Positions 1 through 12,863 of a stretch of DNA of 64,000 bases are shown here, one piece after another. Location: sequence record OZ035756.1, one strand, 5' to 3'. Made by a program: the position numbers and the translations under genes. Numbering within the stretch: position 1 is the stretch's first letter; each line of letters opens with the position of its first letter. Below the pieces are notes generated by a model. That model made no database searches and was not told the origin of the DNA. It saw nothing but the letters and a program-made list of their open reading frames with translations. The stretch is from Tequatrovirus LF73P3.

Positions 1-239
1 ACGAATAGTAGTATCATCATCAATCATCCAAATTCGTTGACCTGCATACATTTCAGTAATTGCTTTGCGAGTGCCAGCAATTCCATTAACATCATCGGGA
101 ATAGTTATAATTTTGGCTCTAGACCCGTAAGCATCATAATAAGCTTTTTCTTCATGTTTACGTACTACAATATGTGGTTCATAATCAGTCGGAAACATAT
201 CAAGGGCAGAAACTGCCCCTACACGTTGATAGCTTGGAA
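1..239 (-). CDS. Partial CDS (N-terminal ~79 aa; rest lies beyond the window start): GT-A type glycosyltransferase, not T4 beta-gt-like
   Basis: Reverse-strand translation from ATG at ~239 reads MIQFVIPSYQR...IWMIDDDTTIR with a DxD motif; sits where T4 has beta-gt, downstream of gene 42. Confidence 0.5.
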
Positions 240-251
240 TTACGAATTGAA

Positions 252-992
252 TCATTTCCACTCACCATTATAATCTTTTTTCGCAATATGAGTTTCACCA
301 GTTTTCCACCAATGGTCAACCAAATAAAAATGACGGGAATACACATGAAGGCTCCCGACATTCCATATAATGGAACCTGCTTTATACTGACGAGTTGAAT
401 CACCTGCATTCAAGTCAGATACTAATTTATCTAGTACGTATTTTTGCCATGCATAATCATTACGGAATCCGAAGACCACGTCATTTGAACGCATGCTTAC
501 TACTGCATTGACTTTCTTATCACGAATCAGGTATTGTACTGTATTCGTACACATGAAATCTGACATACCATCTTTATTGTAGTCAAATTGCATGGATGGA
601 CGAGTATAAATCATGATACCGCGTCGAGAATCAGGATTTTGACCAAGTTCAGCTAAACACATATCATACTGGGCATAGTTATCTTCTGACCAGATGGCCC
701 AACCATAATTCGAGTTAATTTCGCCTTTAGAAGATGCTACCTGTTGCCAAATCTTTGGTGTTTCACCCGGAATATCTTTAACAAACAAACTTTTAGATTT
801 ATACCATTCAAGTTCACGCTGAATGTATTCATCATTAAGAGCGCCAAAAATAAAAGGTTCATCTGCTACAAATGATGCACCAATAATTTCAATAGTTTTA
901 ACACCAGTTTTATCAATTACGAAATCTTTTTCCTTTAATGCAAGACCCAAATCAAGACGGATTTCTTCAACTGTCATATAATCGTTAATCAT
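252..992 (-). CDS. 42: dCMP hydroxymethylase gp42
   Basis: 246-aa ORF; sequence matches T4 gp42 as I recall it (MTVEEIRL...WNVGSLHVYSRHFY); position between the glycosyltransferase and imm. Confidence 0.93.
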   Translation of the reverse strand: MINDYMTVEEIRLDLGLALKEKDFVIDKTGVKTIEIIGASFVADEPFIFGALNDEYIQRELEWYKSKSLFVKDIPGETPKIWQQVASSKGEINSNYGWAIWSEDNYAQYDMCLAELGQNPDSRRGIMIYTRPSMQFDYNKDGMSDFMCTNTVQYLIRDKKVNAVVSMRSNDVVFGFRNDYAWQKYVLDKLVSDLNAGDSTRQYKAGSIIWNVGSLHVYSRHFYLVDHWWKTGETHIAKKDYNGEWK

Positions 993-1145
993 TTAAACCT
1001 CAATTGATGCATTCATATTTAACTTGTAACAGTAATAAACCCCAACCTATAATAAGTGTCGGAATCATAAGAGGAACTGTTACGCTATAGTATATACTTA
1101 TTATAATCATCAAGATTAAAAGCAATACTGCTAAAATTTTGCTTT

Positions 1146-1397
1146 TCATTCCTTCTCTCTGATGATAATTACTTGATTTTGCTGCACAGATTTTTTAGTT
1201 TCACCTGCAATTGACCAAATAAAGGTAATAAACCAACCAATAATTGACCAATTAAACAGTAAAGATGTGAAAAAGATTCCTACTGTCGATTTTGACCCAC
1301 GCATCAAGGCGATGAACCAAGGAAGCATGTATATAATAATAGCCAACACGCCTGAAACTAAAACCATAAAAATTGAACCTGCTACTAAAGTTTCCAT
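1146..1397 (-). CDS. imm: Small membrane protein, probable Imm (superinfection immunity)
   Basis: 83 aa with two hydrophobic helices; same size and position as T4 imm between 42 and 43. Confidence 0.7.
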   Translation of the reverse strand: METLVAGSIFMVLVSGVLAIIIYMLPWFIALMRGSKSTVGIFFTSLLFNWSIIGWFITFIWSIAGETKKSVQQNQVIIIREKE

Positions 1398-1795: not shown

Positions 1796-2050
1796 TCAAA
1801 TACAAGTAGTAATTACTCCAGTAGTGCTTATACAGGTATTACCTAATTGAACACCAAGCGTTCCATTAGTATTCATATGAAGATTATCATCAATTTTTGT
1901 TGATACTTTACCATTCATGTGAATAACAGTATTAGATTCAATCACATTCTGAGTGTCATTTTCAATATCAATAAATGGAACAGATGCTAATGCAACTAGA
2001 ACAGCTGCTAATGCAACTAAACACGCTGCTAAACAACCATAAACAATTTT
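1796..2050 (-). CDS. Small secreted/membrane protein (~84 aa)
   Basis: Track ORF 1796..2242 trimmed to internal Met (MKIVYGCLAACLVALAAVLVALA...) because the 5' extension overlaps an early promoter and gene 43; hydrophobic signal-like N-terminus. Confidence 0.45.
   Translation of the reverse strand, partial: KIVYGCLAACLVALAAVLVALASVPFIDIENDTQNVIESNTVIHMNGKVSTKIDDNLHMNTNGTLGVQLGNTCISTTGVITTCI
1983..2035. repeat. Short tandem repeat (gctaatgcaacta-like unit, ~2.5 copies) inside the signal-peptide coding region
   Basis: Direct reading: gctaatgcaactagaacagctgctaatgcaactaaacacgctgctaaacaacc; encodes the repeated AAVLVALA segment. Confidence 0.5.
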
Positions 2051-2085
2051 CATTTCATTCTCCAAATCCGTATCAGTTGATAGTT

Positions 2086-2120
2086 GTATAGTACCATGGA
2101 AGAACAGGGATGTAAACAGT
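2086..2120 (-). promoter_or_regulatory. T4-type early (sigma70) promoter
   Basis: Minus strand reads GTTTAC-18 nt-TACTAT with an A/T-rich upstream tract; same ~60-bp element recurs at >10 sites in the window. Confidence 0.6.
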
Positions 2121-2200
2121 TTTGTGAAAAAATTTTTAATGAATTTACAGGACCTAGAATCATCTATTTTTCCTAAGTATAGATTTATATTACTTGTATG

Positions 2201-2222
2201 AAAAAGGGACCCGGAGGTCCCT
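2201..2222 (-). terminator. Intrinsic terminator downstream of gene 43
   Basis: Minus strand: GGGACC-UCCG-GGUCCC hairpin followed by UUUUU. Confidence 0.7.
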
Positions 2223-2234
2223 AGATTTATTCTA

Positions 2235-4931
2235 TCAGCCAAACAGGAAGTCTAACGAAGCTTTTTCCTCATAGTCCATACCTGCCGATTCACACATGCC
2301 CGCAAGCGGTTTAACAAACGATTTTTGGAACAAAGTTGAGTAGTCAATCCAAGACAGTACGTCAGAACGAATTTCTTTTGGAAGTTCTGTGCCTGATGGC
2401 CAAGCAATGCACTTGTCACCAAATGGATTTCCTTCACGTAATGGAAGAACCATTACCTTATTTCCATCCAAAATTGGAGCTACACCTAAACCGCTAACAG
2501 CTCGACGATAAGTTAGCACACCACGAATATGGAACGGACATTTAAATCCTGGCCAACCTTTATCATCATATTTCGCTATATCGTTCGCAGTTTTTACTTC
2601 AGCAATAACTTTATAGTCAAGTTGACGATATTCTTTCTCAAAGTTCTTGTAGTATTCTTGGACAGACTCTTCACCTTCCTGAAGAATACGACGAATACTT
2701 TCTTCGAGAGCTTCTTGTACTGCTTTTGGTGTTGAGCTCTGCTGAGTTTCCATACCCATAATTTTTAGATGCGGTTCGGCAAATCGCTTATCTTCCATAT
2801 CATAAACGTTCAGAGCATAACGTTTTTTCGCTTTCCAAAATCCACCAACACCCTTTGAACCAAGCGGAGGGCAAGAAATAGCTTCACGGTCCATATGCAT
2901 CAGATGCTCGCGGTTATTCATATAATCACATAACTCACGATATGCAACATCAATCATAGGTTCCATCTTTTTCTTACCGAACTGATTCATGAATTCAACT
3001 AAATCATTTTGTTCTTTAAAGCGGTCAAGACCTACTTTTTCAATTACTTTATCTACACAAACATATACCGAATCAGTATCACCTGCTGCGATGAAATCTT
3101 CACCATTAGTTCCACATACTTTATTCAGATATTCATTAATTTTGCGAGCAATCCATTGAATACCGACTTGACCGAAAATTGTGATAGCAGTAGCATTTCG
3201 CAAATCATAGTAGCGGAAATGAATATTACCAAGAGCACCATAAAGACTGTTAATAAGAATTTTACGGTTCAGCTGATTTGTGTTAGCAAGTGTAGCAGCT
3301 TTTTCGCATTCTTCGATCAGACTATTAAGTACAGATTCAGTGTAATTCGATAATTCGTTTAAGAAATCATCACTGAACTTAACATATCGTTCAACTTCTG
3401 GTTTAGTTGAACAAGACCCTGCACCTTTCATAATAATCTTTTTAATAGCTTCGGCATTCATTTCTTCCGCGAACATTTTCTTTTTCCAATCTTTACGCTG
3501 GAAAAATACTTTAGCGATTTCCTTTGGAATGATACCTTCTTGGTGCTTATCATACATCCATCCATTCGGAGAGCAAGAATATTCATCACTTGGCTTAGGA
3601 GCTGTTCCTGCGATATATTCATGAATTGGATGAACTTTAAACTGCCCACGAATAGTCTCAGGACTAATGTTAACCTGACGAATAATGCTAGGATACAGAG
3701 ACGTCAAGTCAAAACTCATAATGTATCGACGAGCAATCGGTTTAGGTTCAAACACAAATGCACCTGGAAAACTCTGTTTAACGTGCGAACCTTGTTGAGG
3801 AATAACCTTATGTTCACCTTTCAGTGAGTTAAAAATAATAGCATCCCAAGTTTTAATAGGACTCATTACACCAGAAAAAGGCATTTTAGCGTAATAAGAC
3901 ATACTTAAAACTAGATCGATAAACCCACGAATTTTATCAATTGCTTGAACTGATTCTACGTCAATGATGTTATAACTAATGTATCGTTGATGATTAGTCT
4001 CACGAAGTTTATTAATAGGACCATCGTACGGCAATTTACCTTTTTTGGTTTCATGTTGAGCAACTGATTCCAAAGAGAACGATGGCAAATTAGTAAATGC
4101 GAATTTCTTGTACAAATCTAAATAATCAAGAATAGATACGCCATCAATAGAATAAATTTCTTTACTACCGTACATATTTTGAATTAGTTTAGATTTTACT
4201 CGACCGATTGGAGAGAAGCGTTTCATACTACGTTCACCGAGAACCATTTTAACACGATTCATGATATACGGAACGTCAAATCCCTCAATATTCCAACCGG
4301 TAAAAATAGCAGGTCGTTTCTGTTCCCAGAGATTAATATATTCCATGAGCATATCACGCTCATTATCAAATGGCATATAAATTACTCGGTCAAGAATTTC
4401 TTGAGGAACTTCATCACCACCTTCACAGTCAAGCTTAGCAGCTAACTTTGCGTCCCATTTTGATACTGAACCGTACATTGAATTCAACAAATCAAAGACG
4501 TAAAAACGATCGTCAATTGAATCATAATGAGTGATAGCATCAATTTCATATTCTGCTTTCATTGGGTCAGGAAATTTATCACCAGTAACCTCAATGTCAC
4601 AGTTAGCTACACGAACAAATTTTCGGTCATAAACAATTTCTGAACCATATGTATCACTGATATAAGCGAGTTTAAAATCGTTCATACCGAGAGCTTCGAG
4701 ACCAATGTCTTCCATTCGTTTCATCCAGTCTCGTGCATCTTTCATTGATGGAAATTTTTGAGGAGCACAATTTTTACCATAAATGTCTTTGTATTTTGAC
4801 TCTTCCTTACAATGCCTAAACATAGTCGGAAGATATTCTACTTCACGGGTACGTTCCTTTCCGTTTTCATCAATATAACGCTCAACAATATTATTTCCGA
4901 CTGTTTCGATAGAGATATAAAATTCTTTCAT
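2235..4931 (-). CDS. 43: DNA polymerase gp43 (family B)
   Basis: 898-aa ORF beginning MKEFYISIETVGNNIVERYIDENGKERTREVEYLPTMF, essentially the T4 gp43 sequence as I recall it; exonuclease and polymerase motifs present (FDIE, YGDTDS). Confidence 0.98.
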   Translation of the reverse strand: MKEFYISIETVGNNIVERYIDENGKERTREVEYLPTMFRHCKEESKYKDIYGKNCAPQKFPSMKDARDWMKRMEDIGLEALGMNDFKLAYISDTYGSEIVYDRKFVRVANCDIEVTGDKFPDPMKAEYEIDAITHYDSIDDRFYVFDLLNSMYGSVSKWDAKLAAKLDCEGGDEVPQEILDRVIYMPFDNERDMLMEYINLWEQKRPAIFTGWNIEGFDVPYIMNRVKMVLGERSMKRFSPIGRVKSKLIQNMYGSKEIYSIDGVSILDYLDLYKKFAFTNLPSFSLESVAQHETKKGKLPYDGPINKLRETNHQRYISYNIIDVESVQAIDKIRGFIDLVLSMSYYAKMPFSGVMSPIKTWDAIIFNSLKGEHKVIPQQGSHVKQSFPGAFVFEPKPIARRYIMSFDLTSLYPSIIRQVNISPETIRGQFKVHPIHEYIAGTAPKPSDEYSCSPNGWMYDKHQEGIIPKEIAKVFFQRKDWKKKMFAEEMNAEAIKKIIMKGAGSCSTKPEVERYVKFSDDFLNELSNYTESVLNSLIEECEKAATLANTNQLNRKILINSLYGALGNIHFRYYDLRNATAITIFGQVGIQWIARKINEYLNKVCGTNGEDFIAAGDTDSVYVCVDKVIEKVGLDRFKEQNDLVEFMNQFGKKKMEPMIDVAYRELCDYMNNREHLMHMDREAISCPPLGSKGVGGFWKAKKRYALNVYDMEDKRFAEPHLKIMGMETQQSSTPKAVQEALEESIRRILQEGEESVQEYYKNFEKEYRQLDYKVIAEVKTANDIAKYDDKGWPGFKCPFHIRGVLTYRRAVSGLGVAPILDGNKVMVLPLREGNPFGDKCIAWPSGTELPKEIRSDVLSWIDYSTLFQKSFVKPLAGMCESAGMDYEEKASLDFLFG

Positions 4932-11644: not shown

Positions 11645-11662
11645 AAAGGGCCGAAGCCCTTT
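11645..11662 (-). terminator. GC hairpin (AAAGGGCUUCGGCCCUUU) at 3' end of alpha-gt
   Basis: Perfect stem, UUCG loop, read on minus strand. Confidence 0.5.
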
Positions 11663-12863
11663 ATTTTGTAATAATGTCAAACTGTTCTTTAAAACAGAAG
11701 CTTGAATCTTGATGCTGATACAAAAATTCATATGCTTTTTCTCGCTCACGGTCATAAAGAGCTTGGTCAGATGACAGTTCTTTAATACGTTCAAATGTTG
11801 ATTCCATATCATTTTCATCAAACCAAACGATACCGCTATCATGCGAAATTAGCGGAGTATTATCAACACGGAATTTTAAATTTTCGCCCGTAGATTTCCA
11901 AAATACTGGAATTGTTCCACATGCACCAAGCTCGAGATGAGTATATTCTAAAGAACGTTGTAGATATTTTTTATCTAATTTACTCAGCTGATAACCAAAT
12001 CCGGATTTACTCATGCGTTCAAGCATTTCGCTATTTACATAACGATCAAGAATTTGCGTTGGCAAATTAGGAGCAATTTTAATTTGGTCTACTTGATGAA
12101 GACGATAATACTCATATGGAATTCCTTTTTCTTTAATAGGAATGAACGCAGGAGAACGTTCCAGACCTTCCATAATAGTACTTAGCCCAGCAGGTTTAAG
12201 ATGTTTTTCGTGAAAATCAAACATCTGATAAAAACCTTTCCATGTAGTCGTACGACCAATCCAGCGGTTGATATTCATGTTAATTTCAGAAACATCTTTC
12301 CAGTAGGTTGATCGAACCTTCGCGATATCCATAGGAGGCTGAAAGTTGTATACGGTCGGTGCTTCTTCAATATCATCAAACAGAGAAACAGTTTCTGGAT
12401 ACCATTCTTTCATCAGAACTTTATTAAAATCACCATTATCAGAATGACTAAAAATAACATCAGCTCGACGAACAGTTTCTTCTAATCCCAAATTTCGACG
12501 CAAAGAAAGAGAAGAATGGTCATGTTGATAAACTACAACACGAACAGAAGGTTTAATGTTATCAATAATTTTTTTATAGTTATTAATAGGGTCTTCTTCA
12601 ACCGAAGTAGCAGGAACTGAATTGATAATTAGAATATCACAATCATTTACCAGCTTAAGTGTTTTATCGTATTCTTTTGCCAATAAAACCGGAATTGAAA
12701 ATGATTTATAATCATGTGCACAGTTACGAGTAAATGATTTATCTTTAGCATAAACCAAAGTTACTTCATGACCATTTTTAATAAACCAATCACGCTGCTC
12801 GAGAGAAAATTTAGTTACGCCGCAACCTTCAAGACCTCGAGCCATAAAAATGCATACTTTCAT
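11661..12863 (-). CDS. a-gt: DNA alpha-glucosyltransferase
   Basis: 400 aa, same size and position as T4 alpha-gt downstream of 47; assignment by synteny and length. Confidence 0.75.
   Translation of the reverse strand: MKVCIFMARGLEGCGVTKFSLEQRDWFIKNGHEVTLVYAKDKSFTRNCAHDYKSFSIPVLLAKEYDKTLKLVNDCDILIINSVPATSVEEDPINNYKKIIDNIKPSVRVVVYQHDHSSLSLRRNLGLEETVRRADVIFSHSDNGDFNKVLMKEWYPETVSLFDDIEEAPTVYNFQPPMDIAKVRSTYWKDVSEINMNINRWIGRTTTWKGFYQMFDFHEKHLKPAGLSTIMEGLERSPAFIPIKEKGIPYEYYRLHQVDQIKIAPNLPTQILDRYVNSEMLERMSKSGFGYQLSKLDKKYLQRSLEYTHLELGACGTIPVFWKSTGENLKFRVDNTPLISHDSGIVWFDENDMESTFERIKELSSDQALYDREREKAYEFLYQHQDSSFCFKEQFDIITK

Follow-up and report, generated by a model that had tools for sequence, protein, structure and literature searches.

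The partial glycosyltransferase gene after gene 42 of a Tequatrovirus genome is very probably of the T2/T6 type

The enzyme of the T2/T6 type, from which glucosylated phage DNA receives a second glucose, is already known, its activity having been described in the 1960s. It acts on 5-hydroxymethylcytosine (hmC) that is already alpha-glucosylated, giving gentiobiosyl-hmC, and this beta-glucosyl-HMC-alpha-glucosyltransferase belongs to the TET-associated glycosyltransferase family (TAGT, PF20691), which has a GT-A fold (PMC13216743). Tequatrovirus phages that possess an alpha-glucosyltransferase (alpha-GT) and TAGT, and no beta-glucosyltransferase (beta-GT), contain alpha-glucosyl-hmC and alpha-gentiobiosyl-hmC and no beta-glucosyl-hmC, as determined by HPLC/MS; diglucosylation is about 5% in T2 versus 72% in T6, and wild phages with this pair of enzymes show a 2:2:1 pattern or about two-thirds gentiobiosyl (PMC13390438). 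The TAGT gene of the wild phages is found in a position syntenic with the beta-GT gene of T4 (PMC13390438), a phage that is unusual in its glucosyltransferase content (PMC13216743, PMC13390438). Alpha-GT and beta-GT occur together in only six of 753 phage genomes that bear glucosyltransferases, and only one encodes all three glucosyltransferase types (PMC13216743). Existing papers thus already cover the family along with its fold and distribution (PMC13216743, PMC13390438), and the assignment made here is routine annotation and no discovery.

The window analysed, a stretch of 64,000 nucleotides of Tequatrovirus LF73P3 (OZ035756.1), begins inside a gene on the minus strand, and contains the following features of the glucosylation system.

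1-255, minus strand: partial glucosyltransferase gene, MIQFVIPSYQRVGAVSALDMFPTDYEPHIVVRKHEEKAYYDAYGSRAKIITIPDDVNGIAGTRKAITEMYAGQRIWMIDDDTTIR
13..21, minus strand: DDD (gatgatgat), codons 79-81, the DxD motif at the end of strand 4; D79, D80 and D81 invariant
223..240, minus strand: IPSYQR, codons 6-11, an N-terminal strand-loop motif; I6, P7, S8, Y9 and R11 invariant in an 11-sequence alignment
252..992, minus strand: gene 42, dCMP hydroxymethylase, 246 aa; DNA 97-98% identical to records so annotated
11661..12863, minus strand: intact alpha-glucosyltransferase gene a-gt, 400 aa; 778.9 bits in Pfam AGT (PF11440)

The partial gene is open for 85 codons up to the window edge, and these are the first 85 of approximately 280 codons, about 30% of the gene, the rest of which lies beyond the window. 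The peptide given for it in the initial annotation, MIQFVIPSYQR...IWMIDDDTTIR, is exact, but the extent given there as 1-239 has to be corrected to 1-255, the start codon being at 255 and not 239. The ATG (255..253) overlaps the TGA of gene 42 (254..252) as ATGA at 252..255 on the minus strand, with GGTGAG located 6 nt upstream of the start, and the overlap is likely to be a site of translational coupling. The same junction sequence is found in T2, T6, PP01 and sb3, and the 4-nt overlap with gene 42 is annotated in T2, PP01 and sb3. Two plus-strand open reading frames (37-273 and 174-398) were rejected as antisense shadows of two well-supported minus-strand genes.

The window fragment is identical at 83 of its 85 residues to annotated 280-aa proteins of PP01 and sb3 (tblastn E 4e-52), at 82 of 85 to the T2 enzyme (LC348380), and at 80 of 85 to that of T6 (MH550421), for which a stop codon is counted among the mismatches. 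At the DNA level, the 255-nt segment is 98.4% identical to sb3 and 92.5% identical to G3F9. In Pfam, the fragment scores 28.1 bits against TAGT, for which the cut-off is 27.5, and the full-length sb3 protein scores 38.3 bits, aligned to positions 2-205 of the 205-position profile; the 0.6-bit margin of the fragment is immaterial because of its near-identity to annotated proteins. NCBIfam contains no useful family for either TAGT or T4 beta-gt. Because of the match to the 280-aa proteins and the TAGT score above the cut-off, the 85-codon frame is not a chance one, and it is very probably the 5' third of a T2/T6-type beta-glucosyl-HMC-alpha-glucosyltransferase gene, whose product would make gentiobiosyl-hmC. 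The claim that the glucosylation system is T2/T6-like is borne out by the identities to both enzymes, by the shared slot after gene 42 and by the intact alpha-gt. Across the 85 N-terminal residues compared, the window differs from both T2 and T6 in having K33 for E and E68 for D, which are conservative substitutions; it also keeps the consensus R11, which is replaced by H in T2.

The surroundings of the gene are those of its relatives. Over its first kilobase the window matches numerous Escherichia and Shigella phage records at 97-98% identity, and the matching region is annotated there as dCMP hydroxymethylase (gene 42) and a glucosyltransferase. On the minus strand of PP01 the order is 43, a small ORF, imm.1, imm, 42, 'b-gt: beta-glucosyl-HMC-alpha-glucosyl-transferase' (280 aa), uvsX, 40 and 41; sb3, T2 and T6 share this layout, and the succession of gene 42, TAGT and uvsX is common to all four. 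T4 instead has beta-gt (351 aa) in the slot between gene 42 and uvsX, with a 23-nt spacer in front of it rather than the ATGA overlap and the homing endonuclease gene segA behind it. The partner gene a-gt, which had been noted as intact, is indeed a complete 400-codon frame, its product being 90.5% identical to the a-gt product of T4 and 90.75% identical to that of T6 over 400 aa.

Two small open reading frames were observed farther along the same strand. A strongly hydrophobic 49-codon ORF, MKSKILAVLLLILMIIISIYYSVTVPLMIPTLIIGWGLLLLQVKYECIN (1000-1149, minus strand), fills the apparent gap between imm and gene 42, with its ATG overlapping the imm stop codon as ATGA; T4, T2, T6, PP01 and sb3 have it as a conserved open frame that is unannotated, and it appears in G3F9 as a hypothetical protein. 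This ORF is probably an overlooked gene for a small membrane protein. A variable ORF (1796-2242, minus strand) lies between imm.1 and gene 43. It is listed as 148 aa from a TTG codon, but the internal MKIVYGCLAACLVALAAV... is the more likely start, and the product would be a small membrane protein. Short hypothetical genes are annotated at this position in PP01 and T2, whereas T4 has only a gap of 183 nt.

Conservation within the family was assessed with 11 full-length relatives, 31-98% identical to the first, that were collected with the full-length sb3 protein as query. All 16 invariant columns of the alignment (I6, P7, S8, Y9, R11, V31, R32, Y39, I59, T62, R63, I66, M77, D79, D80 and D81) lie no farther than residue 81 from the N-terminus, and at none of the 16 does the window depart from the consensus. 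The IPSYQR motif resembles the nucleotide-sugar-binding motif 'IPxYN' of GT2 enzymes. By analogy with the GT-A family, DDD would bind metal and nucleotide sugar, with D79 and D81 as putative metal ligands, and a nearly invariant E174-D175 pair outside the window is a candidate for the catalytic base.

An AlphaFold2 model was made of a full-length relative (P0005) that is 98% identical to the window fragment. In this model (mean pLDDT 78.8, pTM 0.81) strands and helices alternate, strand 1 consists of residues 3-7, and DDD directly follows the strand 74-77, with pLDDT of about 92 there. Its structural relatives include WrtF (9omh, 14.3), RmlT (8bz4, 13.0), cellulose synthase (9fmv, 12.9) and TarP (6h1j, 12.6). 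The glucosyltransferase is therefore predicted to have a GT-A fold with a conserved DxD and not a two-domain GT-B fold, and the description of its N-terminus as GT-A/DxD-type agrees with this model and with the invariance of D79, D80 and D81. A sequence search of the PDB returned no solved structure of the TAGT family, only chance matches (E of at least 0.75), and the fold is accordingly a predicted one. The cellular GT2-family inverting GT-A enzymes (WrtF 9omh, RmlT 8bz4, TarP 6h1j and BcsA) differ from TAGT in that identity is only 8-15%, their acceptor is a glycan, lipid or teichoic acid whereas that of TAGT is a sugar on DNA, and TAGT constitutes a separate Pfam family.

The gene identity, its family, the fold of a close full-length relative, the synteny and the presence of the partner alpha-GT were computed here, and a three-step pathway can be proposed. 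Gene 42 would supply hmdCMP, so that hmC is present in phage DNA; the alpha-glucosyltransferase (11661-12863) would attach an alpha-linked glucose to hmC; and the GT-A, DxD-dependent TAGT enzyme would add a second glucose from a UDP-glucose donor, in beta-1,6 linkage to the alpha-glucose, to give gentiobiosyl-hmC. Since alpha-gt is intact and the gene after 42 is of the T2/T6 type, chemistry like that of T2 and T6 is predicted, with alpha-glucosyl-hmC extended to beta-1,6-gentiobiosyl-hmC. The GT2-like GT-A fold suggests that catalysis depends on a metal and proceeds with inversion, in keeping with the formation of a beta-1,6 linkage from UDP-alpha-glucose. How mono- and diglucosylated hmC are apportioned is not readable from sequence; near-identical enzymes give widely different extents of diglucosylation among phages.

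The laboratory records of T2 and T6, which share with the window the slot after gene 42, the ATGA junction, the IPSYQR and DDD motifs and the alpha-GT partner, carry lesions that the window copy lacks. In T6 MH550421 (stretch L005, 4924-4980, minus strand) there is a TAG at codon 10, and the CDS is annotated from Met20; the 71-nt sequence bearing this TAG is found in one of 442 matching records. In T6 NC_054907/AP018814 (stretch L007, 912-1751, plus strand) DDD is short by one Asp (IWMIDDTTIR), giving 279 aa, and this protein has served as the TAGT reference (PMC13216743). T2 LC348380 (stretch L006, 2295-3137, minus strand) has R11H at a family-invariant position. These lesions may be mutations of the stocks, sequencing errors, or tied to the difference between 5% and 72% gentiobiosylation, and on account of them carriage of TAGT does not guarantee activity.

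A third arrangement is found in 12 near-clonal Tequatrovirus records (the G3F9 group), in which gene 42 is followed by TAGT, a divergent PF09198 beta-GT and uvsX. The alpha-gt gene was looked for in one record of this group, G3F9.

Stretch L008, 2345-4269, minus strand: TAGT and beta-GT genes of G3F9 (MZ234037); beta-GT of 358 aa, 207 bits in PF09198
Stretch L009, 4634-5836, plus strand: alpha-gt of G3F9, which gives this phage all three hmC glucosyltransferases

Three other explanations of the partial gene were weighed against the T2/T6-type assignment. That it might encode a T4-type GT-B beta-glucosyltransferase with a diverged N-terminus is suggested by its location in the same slot downstream of gene 42 and by the names 'b-gt' or 'beta-glucosyltransferase' that TAGT bears in some records, but this is so improbable as to be practically excluded: it is refuted by BLASTP, in which the full-length PP01 relative has no similarity to T4 beta-gt (best E=3.3), by the Pfam families, T4 beta-gt scoring 325 bits in PF09198, which neither the window fragment nor the full-length sb3 relative matches, and by the GT-A fold. 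As a tblastn query, T4 beta-gt had no match anywhere in the window. The comparison with the T2/T6 enzyme and T4 beta-gt that the initial annotation had proposed thus agrees with T2/T6 and not with T4; its statement that the protein is not T4 beta-gt-like holds, and MKIAIINMG, the start it had given for T4 beta-gt, is right when checked against the T4 sequence. The two enzymes are alike in using a UDP-glucose donor, forming a beta linkage and taking modified phage DNA as substrate. They are unrelated in sequence and differ in fold, T4 beta-gt being GT-B (PDB 1JG7 and others), and according to the literature they differ in acceptor, which is the hydroxymethyl of hmC for T4 beta-gt and the glucose of alpha-glucosyl-hmC for TAGT.

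The two remaining explanations accept a TAGT gene and concern what lies beyond the window edge. It is very unlikely that the copy is dead or crippled, truncated or mutated outside the window, so that the phage would make only alpha-monoglucosylated and unmodified hmC. Only 30% of the gene falls within the window, with the conserved ED pair outside, and laboratory T6 and T2 records demonstrate an amber codon, a missing Asp and a changed invariant residue; however, the 85 codons in the window are open with every invariant family residue present, neither the start codon nor the coupling to gene 42 is disrupted, and among the closely related records examined (at least 92% identical) all but one T6 stock have an intact, full-length TAGT. 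We infer that the copy of the window phage is full length and active. There is an equally slight chance that the phage belongs to, or is a recombinant of, the rare three-enzyme group, with a divergent T4-family beta-GT directly downstream of TAGT, beyond window base 1. The window ends inside TAGT, so the position of such a gene falls outside it, and the 12 G3F9-group records do carry a PF09198 beta-GT there; yet they make up only 12 of the roughly 475 records of close relatives that bear TAGT, the window segment is nearer to sb3 than to G3F9, sb3 lacks the extra beta-GT, and uvsX directly follows TAGT in sb3, PP01, T2 and T6. An extra beta-GT is therefore probably absent downstream of TAGT in the window phage. 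If it were present, beta-glucosyl-hmC would also be made, and the DNA would contain a mixture of alpha-glucosyl, beta-glucosyl and gentiobiosyl hmC that is not purely T2/T6-like. To our knowledge, the mixed pattern of three-enzyme phages has had no chemical characterisation so far.

With the T2/T6-type assignment preferred, the locus of the window phage is far from exceptional. Its 255-nt segment is held by 674 phage records, about 475 of them at 90% identity or higher, whereas T4 beta-gt DNA is found in 81 records, 29 of them at 95% identity or higher, many of which are T4 or T4 derivatives. From 674 records against 29, together with the scarcity of genomes that combine alpha-GT with beta-GT, the TAGT arrangement is the norm and T4 the outlier: TAGT after gene 42 is the commonest arrangement in Tequatrovirus and not an unusual one.

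The labels attached to this locus are inconsistent. TAGT genes are recorded as ba-gt, as ggt, or mislabelled 'b-gt' (PP01 and T2); the product is called 'beta-glucosyltransferase' in SH7, 'alpha-glucosyl-transferase' in Ge15 and hypothetical in many other records, and in RB55 a T4-type beta-gt is labelled 'beta-glucosyl-HMC-alpha-glucosyl-transferase'. Surveys of phage glucosylation types that rely on gene names would therefore be misled.

Which host defences can act against a phage depends on the pattern of sugars that its hmC bears. Defences sensitive to these sugars include McrBC and McrA, the type IV enzymes of the GmrSD family, and Brig1, a glycosylase with specificity for alpha-glucosyl-hmC. 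The combination of alpha-GT and TAGT predicts that the DNA of this phage would be gentiobiosyl- and alpha-glucosyl-modified, rather than bearing the mixture of alpha and beta glucosylation found in T4.
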